A stretch of DNA of 40,722 bases from Candidatus Nanohaloarchaea archaeon (GTDB lineage: Archaea > Nanohalarchaeota > Nanosalinia > Nanosalinales > Nanosalinaceae): NCBI GenBank assembly GCA_042218325.1, contig JBDGRE010000002.1:1-40722 (forward strand), in the 5' to 3' direction. Under the pieces are notes generated by a model. That model saw only the letters and a program-made list of their open reading frames with translations, searched no databases and was not told the origin of the DNA. Both the position numbers and the translations under genes were made by a program. Below are positions 1 through 35,220 of the stretch, in pieces. Position 1 is the first letter of the stretch, and each line of letters begins with the position of its first letter.

Positions 1-106
1 ACTCCGACGCATTACAGTCTATTAAACTGTTAGTCAAAAGAACTGTTTTACTTTTTTCAACGAGAGTCTAACAGGTACACTAAATGGAAGGGTGAGACCA
101 CTGTCT

Positions 107-244
107 ATGACCTCTTCAACATCCAACAGGCTCGGAAAATGTCTTGTCTGCCAACAACGGGTCAAAACCTCTCACACCTACCTCACTACAGCTGAGGGAT
201 ATGCACATAGAATCTGCCTTGACCAGCAAGGAATCCTCGCATAG
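107..244 (+). CDS. Zn-finger microprotein (CxxC-x18-HxxC), 45 aa
   Basis: Read manually, not in ORF track: MTSSTSNRLGKCLVCQQRVKTSHTYLTTAEGYAHRICLDQQGILA*. SD-like GGGTGA upstream; stop abuts the SD of the next gene. Confidence 0.65.
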   Translation: MTSSTSNRLGKCLVCQQRVKTSHTYLTTAEGYAHRICLDQQGILA

Positions 245-257
245 AGGTGAATGCTCT

Positions 258-503
258 ATGTATGAAGCAGTCGGAAAGACACTGGCAGCTTCATTCCTGA
301 TGCTCGGATTAGCAATCGGACTCATAGGAATCAGCAACAACCCAGACAGCCAACTAACAGAAGTAGGGATGACAGACGGAATCAGCAAACCCGCAGAGAC
401 AGGAACTACCGAGACCATTTCCAGCCACGGAGAAAGTGAACACTCGATACAGAAGTTACCGAAGACGCAGAAAGGGATGGAGAGACCGCGGGGACAGGCA
501 TAG
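258..503 (+). CDS. small membrane-anchored hypothetical protein
   Basis: ATG at 258 follows SD GAGGTGA (244-250); N-terminal hydrophobic helix LAASFLMLGLAIGLIGI. The track start at 144 is probably too early. Confidence 0.6.
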   Translation: MYEAVGKTLAASFLMLGLAIGLIGISNNPDSQLTEVGMTDGISKPAETGTTETISSHGESEHSIQKLPKTQKGMERPRGQA

Positions 504-574
504 CCCGATGCAGGAATCCAGCCTGTCTGTTCAATATTTTTAATTGTCCCACAGGCTCGCCACAATTATTGTAG

Positions 575-1033
575 GTGAATCCATCGATAATTGATTTGGA
601 CAACGACAAGCAGGTCTGGGCTGCAAGCCTGATAGCAGTCCTCGGAGCATTAGCCTTCTTCGAGGCAGGACTACTCCTCTCAGGAAACCTCGGACTACTC
701 GGAGCAGACACCAAGAAAGTGATGAGCAAGGAGAAAGTCCGAGACAAGGTCCAGAACTATGTCTCAGTGACCTCAGGAGAAAGAGCCAACGCCACAGTAA
801 CCTCAATCGAAAGAAGCGACCAACTGGAATCATTCTACACAGTAGGAGTCAAAGTAACCGCACAGGTCCTGAACCAGACACGGACATCCGAGACCACGGT
901 CCTGGTTTCCAGAGATGGAGAATACATCCTGTCAGGTCAGCCCAGAGACCTTGACGAACCAAAACCACCACAACCAAGAACACCGACAATCCAACCACAA
1001 ACAGGAGAAGGAGAGGAAGAAGGAGGACGATAA
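575..1033 (+). CDS. membrane-anchored exported protein with DsbC-N-terminal-like motif
   Basis: One TM helix, motif VLVSRDGEYILSGQPRDL, Pro/acidic tail. Confidence 0.7.
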   Translation: MNPSIIDLDNDKQVWAASLIAVLGALAFFEAGLLLSGNLGLLGADTKKVMSKEKVRDKVQNYVSVTSGERANATVTSIERSDQLESFYTVGVKVTAQVLNQTRTSETTVLVSRDGEYILSGQPRDLDEPKPPQPRTPTIQPQTGEGEEEGGR

Positions 1034-1082
1034 ACAACGCATTTCCTCCTTTTTCCCTCCTAACCCTTTATTTCAACAGGAG

Positions 1083-2189
1083 ATGAGAACAGTGAACCAC
1101 GAACTCCAAACCAAGCACATACTACTACTCTCAGTAAGCCTTTCTCTTATCGCAGGGGTAATAGGAGGATACTCCGCCACCAAGATATATTCCAAGCCAA
1201 CTGAAACCTTCCAGCCCGAACCCATAAGCTCTCAGAAACATCCCAATTCCTCACTATACAAAGAAGCCTACCGAAGCCTGATGGACTCAGTAGTATCCAT
1301 AAAAGTAAACAAAGTCACTGGAGGAAGCTCACAGGGAACAGGATTCATCTGGGACAAAAAAGGACACATCGTAACCAACCACCACGTCATACAGAACGCA
1401 GAAACAGTAGAAATACGATTCAAAAAAGGAGAATGGAGAAAAGCCAGTATAGTCGGAAAAGACATCTACAGCGACCTCGCAGTCCTCAAAGTCGAAAACC
1501 CTCCCAACTACACCGAACCACTCCCTGTAGCTAAGTCAAACCCAGAACCAGGAAGCTTCGTAATGGCATTAGGAAATCCATTCGGACTACAAGAAACCAT
1601 AACACACGGGATAATCTCAGGAGTCAACCGCAGTATGCAGACAGCAGGGAACTTCCAGATACCCGACACCATCCAGACAGACGCACCTATCAACCCTGGC
1701 AACAGCGGAGGACCGCTCATCAACAAACAGGGAGTGGTAGTAGGAGTCAACAGAGCAAAGCAGGGAGACAATATCGGATTCGCCATAAGCCCTGCCATCA
1801 TAAACCGAGTAGTTCCATCTTTAATTGAGAAAGGAGACTACACCCATCCTTACCTCGGAATCAGTATGCGGACAGTATCACCGAGCGTAGCAGAAGCCAA
1901 CAATATAAGGGAAGCCGACGGAGTCCTCGTAGTAGAGACACTGGAAAGAGGTCCAGCAGCAGGCGAATTACAAGACAGCAGATATACTGCAATAACAGAA
2001 AACAGCAGAATACCTATCGGTGGCGATGTAATCAAAGCCATCAACGGAAGAAGCATAGATTCAAGCCAGGAACTATCCAGCTATCTCGCCACCCAAACCA
2101 GTCCAGGAGAAAAGATCACTATCACCATCCTCAGAAACCAGAAAAGAAAAAAGGTGGAAATAAAACTCGGAAAAAGACCTGAACCGTAA
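1083..2189 (+). CDS. htrA: HtrA/DegP-family serine protease with PDZ domain
   Basis: TNHHV, DLAVLK, QTDAPINPGNSGGPL motifs; N-terminal TM; C-terminal PDZ (YLGI...GDVIKAING). Start moved to 1083 to avoid overlapping the upstream gene. Confidence 0.95.
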   Translation: MRTVNHELQTKHILLLSVSLSLIAGVIGGYSATKIYSKPTETFQPEPISSQKHPNSSLYKEAYRSLMDSVVSIKVNKVTGGSSQGTGFIWDKKGHIVTNHHVIQNAETVEIRFKKGEWRKASIVGKDIYSDLAVLKVENPPNYTEPLPVAKSNPEPGSFVMALGNPFGLQETITHGIISGVNRSMQTAGNFQIPDTIQTDAPINPGNSGGPLINKQGVVVGVNRAKQGDNIGFAISPAIINRVVPSLIEKGDYTHPYLGISMRTVSPSVAEANNIREADGVLVVETLERGPAAGELQDSRYTAITENSRIPIGGDVIKAINGRSIDSSQELSSYLATQTSPGEKITITILRNQKRKKVEIKLGKRPEP

Positions 2190-2193
2190 AAAA

Positions 2194-2282
2194 GGGTTAA
2201 ACTCCGTAAAATCACTCAAACCCGTTATTTCTTTGAAAGAGCTTCTAAACTGCTGAAATATCGGGAAAGCTCGCCGGGGGCG
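2194..2282. repeat. direct repeat copy 1 (att-like; last 11 nt of tRNA-Ser plus 78 nt of downstream sequence)
   Basis: Ungapped alignment with 3421-3509, 5 mismatches in 89 bp. Confidence 0.95.
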
Positions 2283-2357
2283 TCATAGAAACCAGAGGTT
2301 ACAACGCTCCGACGCAATACACTTTGTTACAAAAATTATAGATGAGAAACATGTGTT

Positions 2358-3413
2358 ATGGGTCACAATTTCATCCTCCCGCCAGTACTTGAAAAAGGCG
2401 ATAAGGTCGCAGTTATTGCAACTTCGAGTGGCGTGCAAGAGTTTCCAAAGGTTCTGGAAAAAGGCGTAGAAAAACTGGAAAACCGATTTGGGTTAGAACC
2501 CGTGGTCTACGATACAGCAAGGAAAGACACAGAATACCTGAACAATCACCACAAGGAGAAAGCTGAAGAATTAATGCGGGCATTTGAAGACCCTGAAATC
2601 AAGGGAGTTGTAGCTTTGACAGGTGGTTCAGAGCAAATTAGGATGCTGAAACATTTAGAGCCAAGAAGACTGAAACAGAATCCAACTCGGTTCTACGGCA
2701 TAAGCGACAACACCAACCTACATATATACCTCTGGAACTTAGGCATCCAAACCTTCTATGGAGGGCAGATACTGGATGACTTACTGGCTGAAGGAGAAAT
2801 CGGAGAATACACCTACAAACACTTAGAGAAAGCTTTCTTCCAAGATGGTTTGGGAACGGTAGAGCCTTCAGAACATTTTACAGATGATTACTTCGATTTG
2901 TTCCAAGATGAGATTAAGGATGACCGTGAAAGATACGATAGTCCTGGATGGAGTTTCTGGAACTTTGATGGAGAAATTGTGGAAGGCAGGCTTTGGGGAG
3001 GTTGCCTCGGAGTATTACCAGAACAGATGGCGGTAGAAAAATACCTCCCAGAAATGGAAGAATTGGAAGGTAAAATACTGGCTTTGGAAACATCAGAAGA
3101 ACATCCTGACGAGTTAGAGGTGAAGAGAAATCTGCTATGTATGGGTGAAAAAGGAATGCTGGAAAAGTTCTCCGCAGTAATAGTTGGCAGACCGATGAGA
3201 AGCCCATTATTCGGAGAAGACAAAAGTTTAGAGGAAAAGCAGGAATATCACGAAACTCAGAAACAGACAATCAAGGATGAAATTAAGCGATACGCACCTG
3301 ACACCCCTGTAGTCTTCGATGTAGACTTCGGACACACCCATCCGAAAATTCCGATGCAGTTAGGGGGCATAGTAAGACTTGAACCTGAGAAAAGTCAAAT
3401 ATTCTTCAAGTAA
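2358..3413 (+). CDS. S66 family peptidase (LD-carboxypeptidase/MccF-like)
   Basis: PPVLEKGDKVAVIA start; Ser-Glu-His triad motifs GISDNT, LETSEE, DFGHT; GRLWGGCL. Confidence 0.92.
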   Translation: MGHNFILPPVLEKGDKVAVIATSSGVQEFPKVLEKGVEKLENRFGLEPVVYDTARKDTEYLNNHHKEKAEELMRAFEDPEIKGVVALTGGSEQIRMLKHLEPRRLKQNPTRFYGISDNTNLHIYLWNLGIQTFYGGQILDDLLAEGEIGEYTYKHLEKAFFQDGLGTVEPSEHFTDDYFDLFQDEIKDDRERYDSPGWSFWNFDGEIVEGRLWGGCLGVLPEQMAVEKYLPEMEELEGKILALETSEEHPDELEVKRNLLCMGEKGMLEKFSAVIVGRPMRSPLFGEDKSLEEKQEYHETQKQTIKDEIKRYAPDTPVVFDVDFGHTHPKIPMQLGGIVRLEPEKSQIFFK

Positions 3414-3420
3414 CTTTCTC

Positions 3421-3509
3421 GGTTTAAAATCCGTAAAATAACTCAAACCCGTTATTTCTTTGAAAGAGCTTCTAAAATACTGAAATATCGGGAAAGCTCG
3501 CCGGGGGCG
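3421..3509. repeat. direct repeat copy 2, overlapping the tRNA-Ser 3' end
   Basis: Matches 2194-2282. Confidence 0.95.
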
Positions 3510-3588
3510 GGATTTGAACCCGCGTGGGAGCGTTGCACCCCCAGTGGCTTAGCAAGCCACCGCAATGGCCAGGCTATGCGACCCCGAC
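3499..3588 (-). tRNA. tRNA-Ser (GCT), no encoded CCA
   Basis: Cloverleaf: acceptor GTCGGGG/CCCCGGC plus discriminator G; anticodon arm GTGGC-TTGCTAA-GCCAC; long variable arm; T arm GCGGG-TTCAAAT-CCCGC. Confidence 0.95.
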
Positions 3589-3706
3589 AGTGGTGTAAGG
3601 TTAAAGGTGGCGTGCAAATGTTTAAAATGCCAAGTTCTCGGGCTGTGAGGTCAACAAGCTATTTAAATTTCTGACCGGCAACAGGTCTTAAGAGGTATAA
3701 TAAAAG

Positions 3707-3991
3707 ATGGCGGATAACATCATCGACTTTTCAGACATCACTGACAAGGACGTCTTCACGAGAAACGGTTCTTACTGCGGGAAGCTGAAGGATGTGGAGC
3801 TGAACCTCGGCAAGTTCGGGGTCCGCGCGGTAGTCGTGGGAGCGAAGAAAGGCTCCTACCTGGCGCAGAAGGTCGGCGGCGCGAAGAACGTCGTCATCCC
3901 GTACAACATGGTGGAAGCCCTTGACGATGTCATAATCATCAAGGATTTCCAGACCTCTGACATGGACGCGGGCGAGGCGGAAACGGCTTAA
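3707..3991 (+). CDS. PRC-barrel domain protein (CdpB-like)
   Basis: KDVFTRNGSYCGKLKDVEL and VVIPYNMVEALDDVIII pattern typical of archaeal PRC barrels. Confidence 0.88.
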   Translation: MADNIIDFSDITDKDVFTRNGSYCGKLKDVELNLGKFGVRAVVVGAKKGSYLAQKVGGAKNVVIPYNMVEALDDVIIIKDFQTSDMDAGEAETA

Positions 3992-30296: not shown

Positions 30297-30683
30297 ATGA
30301 GCGAACAACCCCTGGAAGAAGACCTGCGGGAGAAACTAAGCGAGGAGGAATACCACGTGCTGCGGGAACGAGGTACAGAACCGCGAGGTAGCGGCGAGTA
30401 CCTCGAGAAGGACGACGATGGCGTTTACCGGTGCAGGGCCTGCGGCCAGAAACTTTTCCCAAGCGACTACAAGTTCGAGAGCTCCGGCTGGCCCAGCTTC
30501 CACGACGCGAAAGAAGGCGCGGTCGAGTTTAAGGAGGACTCACGCCACGGCATGAAACGGACAGAAGTCCTCTGCTCGAGTTGCGGCTCCCACCTCGGCC
30601 ACGTCTTCGAAGATGGTCCGGAGCCGACCGGAAAACGTTACTGCGTGAACTCTGCAGCGCTGGACTTCGAACCAGAAGGATAG
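30297..30683 (+). CDS. msrB: peptide-methionine (R)-S-oxide reductase
   Basis: GTE, CRAC, SGWPSF, CSSCGSHLGHVFEDGP, RYCVNS. Confidence 0.97.
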   Translation: MSEQPLEEDLREKLSEEEYHVLRERGTEPRGSGEYLEKDDDGVYRCRACGQKLFPSDYKFESSGWPSFHDAKEGAVEFKEDSRHGMKRTEVLCSSCGSHLGHVFEDGPEPTGKRYCVNSAALDFEPEG

Positions 30684-30766
30684 CGGAGTTCACTCGAGCA
30701 GACGTTCTCACAGAGAACGCTGCGATTCATCAACGCGGTGGCCCGGGAGTTCGAGGAAGCGGATAA

Positions 30767-31615
30767 CTAAGGCCGCCGTTTCTCGTAGACCGGATCTATA
30801 TTCTTAAAGAACTGGTCTTTGCTCGATGAAGATATGTAAACATTATTCGAATGAATACTAGCTTCAAGCCCTAAACACTCAATAACGCTCTTCAGGAACT
30901 TCTTTTCTGCTTCATCATACGAACATATACGTGGGCCTGAGTTACTGAAGTTGCCATCTGAGTCATAGACACCTTCTATATACTTCCAGCAATCACCCCT
31001 CCTCTTCAACCACTCCTGTTTTGAATCATAGTCGAAACTCATTAACCATTCGACAAGTTTCTTGGAAGAAGCCCAGACCTGTATCTTTCCTCGACCCGTC
31101 CCTTGGCCGGGATTAAGTCCTAAAGTTCTGAGGCAATTCATAAACTTCTTAGCGAACTTCTCTGATTTGACTTCTAAGCCGATAGTCCCCTCATTATCAT
31201 GATAACCATCTCCGTCAGTAACACCTAAAAGATAAGATAACGCTGAATGATTCTCGAAATCCAATTCTATAGTCCTTTCCTCTGAGAGCCTATTCAGCCG
31301 GTTCACAACCTCGTCGCTTCTTTGGTACTCTTCCTCATTTCTTGCAAAACCCAGTTCCATAGCCTTGTGTTTAATCGCATTCCAGGTTCGATTAAGCTCT
31401 GACGTCAACTTTTCGGACTTATCCGGATAATACTGTTTGACTTTCCCAACCTCTTCTTCCGTCCAGAAACCCGTGTATTCAGACTCAACCCCTAATTCAT
31501 CCATCTTTCTTGAAACATATGGCTGAGTTACACCAAATCTTTCTGCTATCTCACGCTGACCTAATCCTTTCTCATGATAGAGAGATACAAGTTTCTGTTT
31601 GTCCAAATCAGACAT
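30767..31615 (-). CDS. free-standing double-motif LAGLIDADG homing endonuclease with N-terminal HTH and Myb-like segments
   Basis: SYLLGVTDGDG and YIEGVYDSDG motifs; LGQREIAERFGVTQPYVS HTH; WTEEE; markedly AT-rich relative to flanks. Confidence 0.9.
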   Translation of the reverse strand: MSDLDKQKLVSLYHEKGLGQREIAERFGVTQPYVSRKMDELGVESEYTGFWTEEEVGKVKQYYPDKSEKLTSELNRTWNAIKHKAMELGFARNEEEYQRSDEVVNRLNRLSEERTIELDFENHSALSYLLGVTDGDGYHDNEGTIGLEVKSEKFAKKFMNCLRTLGLNPGQGTGRGKIQVWASSKKLVEWLMSFDYDSKQEWLKRRGDCWKYIEGVYDSDGNFSNSGPRICSYDEAEKKFLKSVIECLGLEASIHSNNVYISSSSKDQFFKNIDPVYEKRRP

Positions 31616-31691
31616 GAGATAGTTAGCAAATCTTTTTGCCTAAAAACCCAAACGAGAGTCTTCCAGAAGTTCCGATAAAAGGAAAATAATT

Positions 31692-32666
31692 TTAGAGAAC
31701 TGGAGGAAGACCTCCAGCCCCTAAAAGGCCCGAAAAACCTACAGCCAGGGACATATACCCCAATTCGCGAAGCTTGTTCATGATCTCCTTGTCGTCCTTG
31801 TTCTGGGCCCGTCCTGCGCGCTCCTTGGTGTTCTCGATGTCCTGGAGCCAGGCTGGCTCTTCCGCGGACTTGTCGGTGGAGACCTCGCTTCCGAGTGAGC
31901 GGAAGCCAGCCCAGTACTTCGGGCTGATGGGTACGTCTTCCTTGGAGACTCCCTCAGGCAGGTCGCTCTCGTCTTCCGGGTACTCGTCGAGCTCGATGCC
32001 TGTGACGTCGGGGACCATGTGGAACCAGGAGACGTCCCATACGTCGCGCTCGTCGAACTGGAGCAGCGGGTGGACGCGCATGTGCTCCGGTTCGCTTCTC
32101 GGCGAGTAGAAGTCCTCGTCGCCCCGGGATTCGTGCTCGTCCCAGCGGACGCCGTTGATGACAGCCTTGACGCCGTGGTTCTCGAGCAGCTCGTTCATCG
32201 GGACGGTCTTCAGCAGGTGGTTGCCCGCTTCAGTATCCATCAGCCACGGGACCTCCTCGTAGTCGCCGACGCGCTCCGCTTCTTCCTGGTTGCGCTCGTT
32301 GAGCTCCTCGACAGGGACCTTGTCGCCTGGCCTGTCCGCCTTCTCGATGAGGTCCTCGTTCCTGGCGACCATTATCTCGAATCCCCAGTCATCCGCGAGC
32401 TCCTTGACGTAGTCCTCGAGCTCGTCGAAGTGCTGGCCATGGTCGACGAACATGAACTTAGGCTTTTCGAGGCCTTCCTCCTCACATACGCGCTTGACCA
32501 GCCAGGCCGTCAGCGTGGAGTCTTTGCCGCCGGTGAAGCCGATGACCGAGTTCTCCGGCCCGTACTCCTCCAGCGCGCGCTTGACGACCTCCTCGCCGGC
32601 ACGTATCTTGGCTTTTAGTGGTGCGTTCTCGATCTCTTCACGTGTTACAGGTGGTTCGGGTGTCAT
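31692..32666 (-). CDS. PAPS-reductase-family protein, most like sulfate adenylyltransferase subunit 2 (CysD), with a 19-aa C-terminal extension
   Basis: FTGGKDS PP-loop, GVRWDEHESR, RVHPLL, GFRSLG, ERAGRAQNKD..LRELGYM; only one Cys and no ECG motif. Confidence 0.82.
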   Translation of the reverse strand: MTPEPPVTREEIENAPLKAKIRAGEEVVKRALEEYGPENSVIGFTGGKDSTLTAWLVKRVCEEEGLEKPKFMFVDHGQHFDELEDYVKELADDWGFEIMVARNEDLIEKADRPGDKVPVEELNERNQEEAERVGDYEEVPWLMDTEAGNHLLKTVPMNELLENHGVKAVINGVRWDEHESRGDEDFYSPRSEPEHMRVHPLLQFDERDVWDVSWFHMVPDVTGIELDEYPEDESDLPEGVSKEDVPISPKYWAGFRSLGSEVSTDKSAEEPAWLQDIENTKERAGRAQNKDDKEIMNKLRELGYMSLAVGFSGLLGAGGLPPVL

Positions 32667-33467: not shown

Positions 33468-33563
33468 GAAACCTCTCCAGGTTTCTGCATGTCCGGAACC
33501 TTTCAGGTTTCTAGGTTGCAGAAGATTCTTAGAATCTTCGAATCCAGAAAATCTACGATTTTC
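33468..33563. repeat. cluster of four short palindromes (two related pairs)
   Basis: GAAACCT-ctcc-AGGTTTC (33468-85); AACCT-ttc-AGGTT (33497-509); GAAGATTCT-t-AGAATCTTC (33521-39); GAAAATC-tac-GATTTTC (33547-63). Confidence 0.8.
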
Positions 33564-33576
33564 GATCATAATATAG

Positions 33577-33777
33577 TTACCCTACGTAGCCAAGATCCTT
33601 CAACTTCTTACCGATTTTACGGGCCTCTTCCTCCGATATCTTCTCCTCGGACTCCATGTCCTTGACAGCGAGGTGCTTCAGAAAGCTCTTCACAGAGTCG
33701 AACGGCTTGTCATCGAGGTACTCCTTGACATCCTCGACGAACTCTCTCTTGAATGATACTGTCGTATAATCAGACAT
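33577..33777 (-). CDS. CopG/RHH-like microprotein with LxxLGY tail
   Basis: YTTVSF strand plus two helices (FDSVKSFL); tail KIGKKLKDLGYVG. Confidence 0.82.
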   Translation of the reverse strand: MSDYTTVSFKREFVEDVKEYLDDKPFDSVKSFLKHLAVKDMESEEKISEEEARKIGKKLKDLGYVG

Positions 33778-33816
33778 CTAATTACATTTAATTAGAAGTA
33801 ATTTATAAGGGTTCGG

Positions 33817-35220
33817 CTAGAACTCGATGTCCTCGACTTCGCTCTCCGACGGCTCTACCGGCCTGAATCCTTCACGAAATACGTCCAGGGGTTCCCCGTC
33901 GCACGCAAGCTCCTGGCCGAGGTACTCCGCTATGGTGGGTGCGACGTCTATTATCTCGACCTCTTCCAGTTGCCCTTCGCGGAAAGCTGGGCCGCTGGCA
34001 GCCACTATCCCTGTATCGGAATGAACGAACGCATCGTTGGAGAGGAACTGCTCGGGGAATATAGCAGATCCTGTGGCGACGTTCTCCGCCGTCTTCACCA
34101 CCAGCTCCGGCATGTTCTCCGGCTCCTCGTAGATCTCTTCAGCAAGCCAAACCTTCTCCACACCGTCGACCTGCTCCAGCCCTTTTTTCAGCTGCTGCCT
34201 GAGCTCTCCTGCCTCTTTCCCTTGCACCACCTCATGGTTGATGTTTATGTCAGCGTAGCTCAGCGAGCCGGCCCGGTACGAGAACGCCTCTGTCCTGTCG
34301 AAATCTATATCCTCTATACCTGTGGAATCGGGTGATAGCTCTACGCCGGTACTGGAGCTTACCAGGTCGTTCATCTTTTTCAGCAGCGGTCTTAAAGGAG
34401 TGTCCGCGAGTATCTTGGCGATCCTCTGGATCTTCTCCTTGCGGTCTCTCGTGGCCGAGCCCTGCTGCTCGAGTTCAAGGTACCCGTTGTCTCTTAACCA
34501 TGCATTCGGGTAAAAACACCGTTCTACCTGCTTGAAACCGTGGTCCGAGATCGCCAGTATGTTGTCGTACTCCTCTATCTTCTGGCCGATGACCTCATCC
34601 ATCATGCCGTAGGCTTCCAGTATATGGCTTTTCCTGTCCGCCGCATGACCCATCCTGTCGGGCAGGTGGTATATCTCTATCTTCACGTCGACGTCGTCCG
34701 GTGTCTCGGAGAACACCCGCTTCTTCTTCTCGAATATCTGCCTGAAAACCTCTCTTTTCTGCTCCCCGTCCGGGACGTCCCCGTGGTCGGGATACTCAAG
34801 TGGCGGAAGCTTCTCTCGGAGCGATCCAGGATAGACACCCGGGTCCTCGGCCATCGGGAGCCCCTCTACAGCGTACCCGTCCAGCGGCCAGACCGGAGAG
34901 TTTCCCGGCACACTGTTCAGCCCGAACCGTCCATCGATCCTGTCCCATACCATGTCTCCCCTCCACCTCTCCGAGGGAGCAGTGAAACGCTCCCGGTCCT
35001 CGTCCAGCTCCGTCAGGTGGTACGTATCGAACCTGTCCGGTCTCTGCCCCGAAAATATCGACACCCACGCCGGTATCGTGACCGGCGGCACAGTAGACTT
35101 CATATCGCCGAAAAAACCTTCATCTATCAAATTCTCCATGTTCGGCATAAGACCTCTATCGATAGCTTCCTCGACGTACTCCCTGACAGCGCCATCGATA
35201 CCGAGAACGAGGAGCGTCAT
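33817..35220 (-). CDS. AlkP-superfamily nucleotide pyrophosphatase/phosphodiesterase-like protein
   Basis: LGIDG, STVPPVTIPAW, DRMGH, SDHGF, DVAPTI. Confidence 0.92.
   Translation of the reverse strand: MTLLVLGIDGAVREYVEEAIDRGLMPNMENLIDEGFFGDMKSTVPPVTIPAWVSIFSGQRPDRFDTYHLTELDEDRERFTAPSERWRGDMVWDRIDGRFGLNSVPGNSPVWPLDGYAVEGLPMAEDPGVYPGSLREKLPPLEYPDHGDVPDGEQKREVFRQIFEKKKRVFSETPDDVDVKIEIYHLPDRMGHAADRKSHILEAYGMMDEVIGQKIEEYDNILAISDHGFKQVERCFYPNAWLRDNGYLELEQQGSATRDRKEKIQRIAKILADTPLRPLLKKMNDLVSSSTGVELSPDSTGIEDIDFDRTEAFSYRAGSLSYADININHEVVQGKEAGELRQQLKKGLEQVDGVEKVWLAEEIYEEPENMPELVVKTAENVATGSAIFPEQFLSNDAFVHSDTGIVAASGPAFREGQLEEVEIIDVAPTIAEYLGQELACDGEPLDVFREGFRPVEPSESEVEDIEF

Follow-up and report, generated by a model that had tools for sequence, protein, structure and literature searches.

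The question raised by the beginning of this stretch of DNA is how two blocks of low-GC genes came to lie one behind the other at the 3' end of a tRNA-Ser gene. Nanohaloarchaea, which depend on haloarchaeal hosts, have genomes reduced to about 1 Mb, and gene gain in this group is, to our knowledge, poorly known. The window, by which the whole stretch of 40,722 nucleotides (nt) is meant here, is the entire contig C12 (JBDGRE010000002.1) of the genome of a Candidatus Nanohaloarchaea archaeon (GCA_042218325.1; G000 in what follows; 1.07 Mb, 35 contigs, 96% complete). An earlier note, made from the sequence alone, had proposed that the two blocks are small non-autonomous cassettes stacked at one tRNA by a recombinase encoded elsewhere. 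The reading favored here, with a probability of roughly 0.55, is a close relative of that proposal: horizontally circulating cassettes without an integrase of their own, at least two of them at this locus, were inserted site-specifically at the end of tRNA-Ser(GCT) by a recombinase acting in trans, in a system that is active or was so recently.

The locus is built around a direct repeat, the two copies of which (2194-2282 and 3421-3509) differ at 5 of 89 nt (94.4% identity; E 1.4e-34). With the tRNA ends placed by Rfam, the copy at 3421-3509 consists of 11 nt of tRNA (3499-3509) and 78 nt of non-tRNA sequence (3421-3498). The 11-nt core (CGCCGGGGGCG) comprises the discriminator, the acceptor 3' strand and 3 nt of the T stem of tRNA-Ser(GCT), which lies on the minus strand at 3499-3588 (Rfam, 48.1 bits; ARAGORN, 3498-3589) and anchors the array. 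Core copy 1 (3499-3509, plus strand, delimited by Rfam) is the 3' end of this tRNA itself, and core copy 2 (2272-2282, plus strand) equals tRNA positions 63-73. The 78 nt preceding each of these cores on the plus strand are referred to here as the left arm; copy A (2194-2271), taken together with its core, is 88.8% identical to positions 613-701 of a contig from another nanohaloarchaeon, L021, and copy B (3421-3498), recognized from the direct repeat, doubles as the trailer that the tRNA has today.

Just beyond the window lies a third core copy. The first 55 nt of the window exactly overlap the end of contig C6 (contig C4 joins C6 likewise), and CGCCGGGGGCG recurs at C6:7244-7254, which corresponds to window positions -33 to -23. 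This core 3 is followed by a homologue of the sequence that follows core 2 (C6:7244-7301 against window 2272-2329, 81% identity), and C6:7244-7306 was matched by a sequence-only covariance model, R1, with an E value of 5e-18. A conserved right arm of about 55 nt was thus seen after each core that is not continued by tRNA: in unit 2 it occupies 2283-2335 (plus strand; alignment A1; R1 match, E 9e-20) and belongs to a module conserved across genera, and in unit 1 it begins on C6 and ends with its distal part at window positions 1-30 (plus strand), as given by the C6 overlap and the R1 match. Outside the array, G000 held one further copy of CGCCGGGGGCG, at an unrelated site on C1. No arm copies were found elsewhere in this genome, and weak left-arm matches were obtained in G030 and G053 (E 0.005-0.008).

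Three cores in one locus delimit units of 2305 and 1227 bp. Read along the plus strand from the outer side, the order is the core genes of C6 (pelota, the native HtrA and others), a low-GC pilin-like gene and core 3; then unit 1 (core 3, right arm, a Cys/His open reading frame (ORF), two small hydrophobic ORFs, an HtrA-like gene, 78-nt left arm); and then unit 2 (core 2, right arm, a peptidase S66 gene, 78-nt left arm), which runs into core 1 and thereby into the tRNA end. The repeat copies start 4 nt past the HtrA stop (2189) and 7 nt past the S66 stop (3413), all cargo ORFs in the window are on the plus strand, and GC content is 0.41-0.50 in 1-3500 against 0.54-0.63 beyond (0.468 and 0.421 for the units, 0.579 for the flank). 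No recombinase domain was detected in the five ORFs scanned (92-244, 144-503, 575-1033, 1083-2189 and 2358-3413). In all of these respects, namely the make-up of the repeat, its closeness to the cargo stops, the single cargo strand, the deviating composition and the lack of a recombinase in the cargo blocks, the description given in the earlier note was borne out. No long ORF spans left arm, core and right arm, as a split int gene of the SSV type would; the only ORF abutting a core is antisense, 51 amino acids (aa) long, at 2283-2438.

The distribution of the module was examined with a 137-nt query, with pattern scans and with R1 over 70 nanohaloarchaeal species genomes, all of them metagenome-assembled genomes (MAGs) or species representatives, some perhaps from related samples and with short contigs at the loci of interest. 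The 137-nt query recovered core plus right arm once in G026 and twice in G036, and the pattern scans added the contig L021 (G067:C22, from a nanohaloarchaeal MAG) and the metagenome contig L024; a pattern match in L023, from a bacterial MAG, was dismissed as chance. By the covariance model the module is present in 5 of the 70 species genomes, which represent five genera of one family; L024, from the pattern scans, comes in addition. Alignment A1 of the right arm holds 9 copies from 6 sources with a mean column identity of 80%.

At least eight different cargo sets are bounded by this module. G036 carries a 660-bp unit encoding a 160-aa protein (no Pfam family) followed by S66; in L024 an unnamed unit is followed by the same 160-aa unit and then by tRNA-Ser; L021 carries a cytidine deaminase and G026 a major facilitator superfamily (MFS) transporter. 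In G013, about 7.7 kb separate a degenerate arm from the tRNA; this interval holds an internal core with its arm as well as an extra core beside a scaffold gap, and the cargo includes a split phosphoenolpyruvate (PEP) synthase, deaminases, a glyoxalase, serine hydrolases, a shikimate dehydrogenase and a NUDIX protein. Unit sizes range from 0.66 to 5.6 kb, single genes make up the S66, 160-aa and cytidine deaminase units, and cargo occurs in both orientations across sources. The cargo ORFs that were read abut the arms at 4-50 nt, and no relics of integrase, replication or structural genes were seen in the at least eight units read. Likewise, no recombinase was found in any unit, and the arrays of G000, G013, G036, L021 and L024 are without an integrase-bearing unit. 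Altogether, the common ends, exchangeable cargo and stacked arrangement at a single tRNA that had been postulated from two copies were found again in relatives, which is a different picture from the two copies with invariant cargo that the earlier note had associated with a single decayed island or a local duplication.

The units also behave as units. Homology of the 160-aa unit between G036 and L024 runs from core to core (1502-2171 against 837-1493; 66.8% over 683 nt), and for S66 the homology between the window and G036 has its start precisely at the core (68.8% over 638 nt). Their order differs between sources: in G000 it is HtrA, S66 and tRNA, with S66 proximal to the tRNA; in G036 S66 comes after the 160-aa unit, and on a separate contig the HtrA 3' end abuts a tRNA-Ser with a variable arm of the type of the same-genus G011; in L024 the 160-aa unit is the tRNA-proximal one. 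In all six sources the GC content of the cassettes (0.39-0.47), irrespective of the host, lies below that of the flanks (0.48-0.60). The 78-nt left arm is common to the HtrA, S66 and deaminase units.

Transfer between genera is indicated by the comparison of cargo with chromosomal proteins. Core proteins (pelota and native HtrA) of G000 and of genus g11 share about 58-62% of their amino acids, in contrast to 82% aa for S66 and 94% nt for the HtrA 3' end (163 nt, with G036:C39:1-163). The closest S66 is an armless, non-cassette gene in G011 (82% aa, 80.7% nt), and the cassette copy of G036 is 69% identical; the gene is present in 20 of the 70 genomes, and the 13 loci inspected were without arms or a nearby tRNA-Ser. 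The cassette HtrA and the native HtrA on C6 are paralogues. The closest matches of the former, at 61% (G051, family f3) and 57% (G037, family f2), are both in other families, and the remaining full-length matches, native HtrA genes among them, are 37-47% identical.

The chromosomal surroundings of the tRNA are conserved. The order of a 385-aa gene, pelota, HtrA, a 339-aa gene, a 220-aa gene, a gap, tRNA-Ser and a PRC-barrel gene is kept in at least 8 relatives. The gap before tRNA-Ser measures 114 bp, from the conserved neighbor to the tRNA, in G016; in other relatives it is 1-3.9 kb long and filled with genes of host-like GC, one of which was taken by eye as a thymidine kinase. A second tRNA-end copy is absent within about 12 kb in 16 of 18 relatives, the two exceptions being G013, with its array, and G018, with a copy 112 bp away in a different flank. 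Of the empty tRNA-Ser alleles that the earlier note had suggested looking for, no clean example was demonstrated: most relatives have no second tRNA end and G016 has a short gap, and the candidate in the same-genus G001 was rejected after its flank proved unalignable (pilin-like neighbors barely similar, E 0.046).

In four sources (G000, G036, G026 and L021) the array ends distally with a copy of the 11-nt tRNA end, beyond which the flanks are unrelated; site-specific integration at the 3' end of a tRNA leaves this signature. Sequence variants of the tRNA point in the same direction. The combination of G71 with a CCCGC T stem in the tRNA was unique to G000 among the genomes compared, as would be expected if an incoming cassette had supplied the tRNA end, and the core variant of this tRNA was also found at cassette junctions in G036 and G013; such an origin of the G000 tRNA end would fit these variants, which are compatible with it and do not amount to proof. 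In G013 the internal core matches the variant of its own tRNA, and a further core shows the foreign CGCC type. From the few core polymorphisms seen in G036, G013 and L024, which would permit an exchange between core positions 3 and 9, we infer that exchange would take place inside the core, within those positions.

An older, third cassette comprising the low-GC pilin-like gene on C6 (C6:5810-7081) was considered and rejected. By eye, TGAAATAT[A/C]GGG can be read in the C6 flank and TCATAGAA past the stop of the gene; nhmmer returned nothing, and 130-184 of 1000 shuffles attained the local alignment scores. The GC content of the gene, 0.459, is the sole hint of a foreign origin.

Reads of four runs (X1-X4), used as Logan contigs only, support the assembly at this locus. 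An X1 contig of 12,084 bp crosses the C6-C12 junction, and the joints from HtrA to arm A, from arm A to S66 and from S66 to arm B are each covered by separate Logan contigs with 0-4 differences. An X2 contig joins position 2185 to 3502, which is the HtrA-tRNA-Ser arrangement of G036. In X1, k-mer depth was 27-31 in four of the five listed cassette contigs and 21 in the fifth, against 16.8-18.4 for the flanking chromosome. Additionally, loose ends were seen before 2194 (one, in X1) and before 2272 (two, in X2), which suggests that more cargo and flanks are joined to the same arms.

Under the favored reading, a circular cassette with left arm, core and right arm as its attP would recombine with the tRNA end as attB inside the 11-nt core. 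The newest unit would then adjoin the tRNA and older units would be pushed outward. The recombinase would act in trans and would most likely be a tyrosine enzyme whose gene is on a plasmid, virus or island residing alongside. New functions would reach a reduced genome of about 1 Mb through cargo that has its own promoter, namely a protease, a peptidase, a transporter and genes of nucleotide and amino-acid metabolism.

The trans-acting recombinase that the earlier note had postulated was looked for in G000. This genome encodes a small resolvase and seven tyrosine recombinases, the latter falling into three groups, with PF00589 matches on contigs C13, C26, C5, C30, C24 and C25 and none on C12 or C6; two of these recombinases are adjacent to pieces of other tRNAs (Arg, Pro) or have such a piece on the same contig. 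Nothing ties any of them to the arms or to all of the array genomes. No integrase fitted as an explanation of the arrays by its phyletic pattern. Y1 and IS110 transposases were not found in G000, where the TnpB/Cas12f zinc ribbon gave only a weak match below the cut-off. An autonomous element with these arms was not encountered in the 70 genomes, in IMG/VR or in a metagenome scan, all searched with exact patterns or one model, so that its absence is unproven. As a side observation, the sole serine recombinase of G000 (a 198-aa frame) is on contig C22 (6700 bp), the ends of which share a short identical stretch; this contig may be circular.

Several observations weigh against the favored reading. 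No recombinase was found beside a tRNA-Ser fragment or an arm in any source, none of the three recombinase groups tested is common to all array genomes, G013 (79% complete) is without any PF00589 match, and three patterns run against the viral collection IMG/VR gave 0 matches to the module. Neither a circular junction nor a clean empty allele is demonstrated, and a circle differs from the chromosomal junction only at the five mismatches between copies A and B. One X1 joint (2287 to 3502, depth 12.1) has 24 nt on one side and misses a unit deletion by 13 nt. Nor does the left arm always accompany the cargo: HtrA, with its 78-nt arm here, has an unrelated 50-nt spacer in G036, which indicates that arms and cargo have been re-assorted, presumably by homologous recombination, and the 89-bp repeat is long enough for such recombination. 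Furthermore, the tRNA-proximal core of L024 (CGCCGGGGCCG) differs from its internal core (TGTCGGGGGCG). Divergence among cassette copies often equals that of the genomes that carry them (67-69% nt identity), and some of the pattern could reflect old vertical inheritance.

Amongst the rival explanations, the one to be taken most seriously, and still a doubtful one, is that the units are immobile fossils: successive integrase-bearing elements would have entered at tRNA-Ser and decayed to genes plus att ends, with homologous recombination and gene loss reshaping what was left. G000 does contain remains of this kind, since a decayed element at tRNA-Glu(TTC) keeps an N-terminal integrase fragment between 51-nt repeats and a unit with a RadC-like gene is found at tRNA-Pro, and the arms are without a linked active integrase. 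The divergence of cassette copies between genera noted above would also suit old remains, and the 89-bp repeat could support homologous deletion or insertion. Decay of this kind is harder to reconcile with at least eight units in which cargo abuts the arms closely and no element relics were seen, with the same cassette bounded by cores at different array positions in two genomes, with 94% nt identity of HtrA between genera whose core proteins are about 60% identical, or with a low GC content that remains unameliorated in every host. The unit boundaries are moreover sharp and held in common, and for two units the similarity between genera looks recent.

Homologous recombination has also to be considered as the sole agent, with arm and tRNA end serving as portable homology by which DNA from relatives is swapped and no site-specific enzyme is needed. 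Arms of 55-89 bp at 80-94% identity do flank every unit, left arms and cargo are re-assorted, and G013 has an array with no detectable tyrosine recombinase. This explanation seems improbable to us, as it accounts neither for the same arm on unrelated genes nor for the distal boundary at the 11-nt tRNA-end copy beside unrelated flanks. That the tRNA trailer was tandemly duplicated on the spot, or that assembly or binning of mixed populations produced a chimera, is hardly to be expected at all. The locus does sit at a contig end where the assembly graph branches, a terminal 55-mer on contig C22 of G036 that fuses HtrA to S66 is a possible mis-join, and several MAGs may come from related samples. 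On the other side, the junctions of cores 1 and 2 lie within a single contig, the unit joints are covered by the Logan contigs described above, and assemblies of other genera contain the arms too, on contigs bearing the genes or tRNA type proper to those genera; duplication would not yield cargo that differs between units. The 55-mer itself (G036:C22:10707-10761, the end of L018) is an observation of its own: the S66 frame runs in frame into sequence 100% identical to window 1670-1724, the HtrA catalytic region, and the joint is either an assembly k-mer join or a real fusion or deletion.

Returning to site-specific insertion of integrase-less cassettes, comparison with described systems suggests that the locus is best read as a variant of tRNA-targeted integrative elements, nearer to the accretion of cis-mobilizable elements (CIMEs) and to tycheposon islands than to an integron. 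According to the available text of PMC5704250, a review that treats accretion at tRNA or other 3' gene ends in streptococci, CIMEs are decayed bacterial integrative and conjugative or integrative and mobilizable elements (ICEs, IMEs) without integration and transfer genes, beside an integrase-bearing partner. They resemble the array in that attL and attR are kept without those genes and in forming tandem stacks at a tRNA 3' end with copies of the target end between them (PMC5704250, same text). The array, in contrast, has units of 0.66-5.6 kb with no relics or autonomous relative identified and no integrase-bearing partner in cis, and one arm of about 55 nt is found across five archaeal genera with many cargo types. 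Tycheposons of Prochlorococcus, as far as the accessible text of 10.1101/2020.12.28.424599 describes them, carry an integrase in those counted (a tyrosine recombinase in 910 of 937), and many have replication genes; integrase-less material there is degenerated and without clear boundaries. Likeness is found in the streamlined genomes, tRNA targets, partial tRNA copies separating units, older units pushed outward and niche cargo (10.1101/2020.12.28.424599, same portion). The array units differ in having no site-specific integrase of their own and in boundaries that are sharp and conserved. Classical tRNA-integrated islands with a tyrosine integrase (Islander-type definition), in the part of PMC4383910 at hand, share the regenerated tRNA at one end, the displaced 3' fragment at the other and a foreign composition. 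At the locus studied here the tRNA, the end repeat, foreign GC and patchy presence are all seen; there is, however, no integrase inside, and only 11 nt of the conserved site are tRNA, the rest being element sequence.

Integrons, including those of archaeal MAGs, and clusters of attC sites lacking integrases (CALINs) are like the array in their mostly one-gene cassettes, conserved site module and cassettes without a recombinase of their own, and CALINs also in having no integrase (10.1101/2022.02.06.479319, available text). The small-cassette array is indeed present here. Unlike integrons, however, no intI/attI/Pc head was found beside the array, the head of which is the tRNA plus the PRC-barrel gene; the tRNA end is duplicated at every junction, and both cargo orientations occur. 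No attC-like single-strand hairpin was found either, the junction folds giving z scores of -0.34, -1.92, -1.45 and -2.15. The only conserved fold element is an inverted repeat of 5 bp, GCGTC...GACGC, which 8 of 9 arm copies retain with one compensatory change; that the right arm resembles the tRNA-Ser variable arm (inverted repeat I4) was rejected, this repeat being no better than chance repeats and not kept in other copies. TATA-like boxes upstream of the cargo were read by eye. Thus, the integron-like character claimed in the earlier note survives as an analogy only. In the available text of the archaeal integron preprint there are 0 mentions of tRNA or Nanohaloarchae* (10.1101/2022.02.06.479319), and that of a preprint on nanohaloarchaeal viruses and satellites does not describe the locus, although its supplements could list att sites (10.1101/2025.02.15.638363). 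Full-text literature searches, with supplements outside their scope, returned no description of tRNA-Ser cassette arrays in nanohaloarchaea.

The locus represents a compact, repeatable way in which one chromosomal address receives single genes that come to be shared between genera. A stronger claim, which we put forward tentatively and consider rather unlikely on present evidence, is that tRNA-Ser(GCT) serves as a dedicated gene-capture platform, an analogue of the integron built on a tRNA site, at which a minimal cassette pool shared across genera is inserted, excised and reordered by a recombinase encoded elsewhere. Such a platform would supply metabolic and envelope functions to symbiont genomes of about 1 Mb. 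Should a trans-acting recombinase be found, the array would constitute a minimal archaeal cassette system without integron machinery and with defined att sites (11-nt core plus an arm of about 55 nt). If the units are fossils, the locus still shows how integrative elements of DPANN archaea accrete and become extremely reduced. The full-text searches returned a description of neither case.

The cargo genes of the array in G000 are all on the plus strand. In unit 1, a small Cys/His-rich ORF of 50 aa (92-244; no Pfam family) is 72% nt identical to L018 1320-1427 of G036, a small hydrophobic ORF is inferred at 258-503 from an ATG at 258 inside ORF 144-503 (no Pfam family), and a 152-aa ORF with a hydrophobic N-terminus follows at 575-1033 (no Pfam family). 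The HtrA-like serine protease at 1083-2189 is supported by Trypsin_2 (E 2.7e-34) and PDZ_2 (E 1.5e-12). The only gene of unit 2, at 2358-3413, belongs to peptidase family S66, the LD-carboxypeptidase family (Pfam, E 2e-28 and 5.6e-22). On the chromosomal side, the conserved neighbor is the PRC-barrel gene at 3707-3991 (plus strand; Pfam, and synteny with tRNA-Ser in relatives). The tRNA was the sole Rfam match, and a scan for bacterial-type promoters and terminators, a type unsuited to archaea, gave counts at or under shuffle level. A second S66 gene of G000, 68% aa identical to the cassette copy, is located at C3:12616-13662, at the end of a 13.7-kb contig with 44.6% GC.

Further low-GC DNA is present in this genome. 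Within the window, GC dips to 0.43-0.51, against about 0.58-0.61 around it, at 30501-32000 and 33501-34000. C3, C20, C21, C26, C27 and C33 are small low-GC contigs, several of them at 42-47% GC, and C26 carries an integrase and a tRNA-Pro-like 3' part; these contigs may be islands, plasmids or mis-binned DNA. In L021, the deaminase cassette ends at 690-720 in 20 nt of tRNA-Ser 3' end followed by non-tRNA sequence, and the complete tRNA-Ser(GCT) of the same MAG, on G067:C55, is of a different sequence type; this cassette locus may have been moved, brought in as one block or mis-binned.

Other tRNA genes of G000 are linked to repeated ends as well. The decayed integrative element at tRNA-Glu(TTC) (C23:15160-17586, L079) has 51 nt of the tRNA 3' part repeated 2.4 kb away, and between the repeats lie the integrase N-terminal fragment (99 aa, C26-like), a pilin-like gene of 362 aa, whose N-terminus resembles a 423-aa protein on C6, and a 140-aa ORF. 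At C2:58851-60100 (L080) the last 21-23 nt or so of tRNA-Pro(TGG) recur three times downstream, bounding a unit of about 900 bp with a RadC-like JAB protein (weak Pfam match, E 6e-4) and two hairpin mini-units. For tRNA-Met, tRNA-Tyr, tRNA-Glu(CTC) and tRNA-Ala, the last 21-24 nt of each are copied directly 47-67 nt downstream (C1 at about 107148-107291 and 201675-201827; C31 at about 74019-74163 and 77312-77475), and the spacers contain a segment complementary to the T loop and, immediately before the copy, a conserved hairpin AGAAAA...TTTTCG. These short copies could be att scars of an element family or something functional, and a similar two-hairpin module with a tRNA-end copy is found behind tRNA-Ser in G001, G007 and G018 (L037, L042 and L043).

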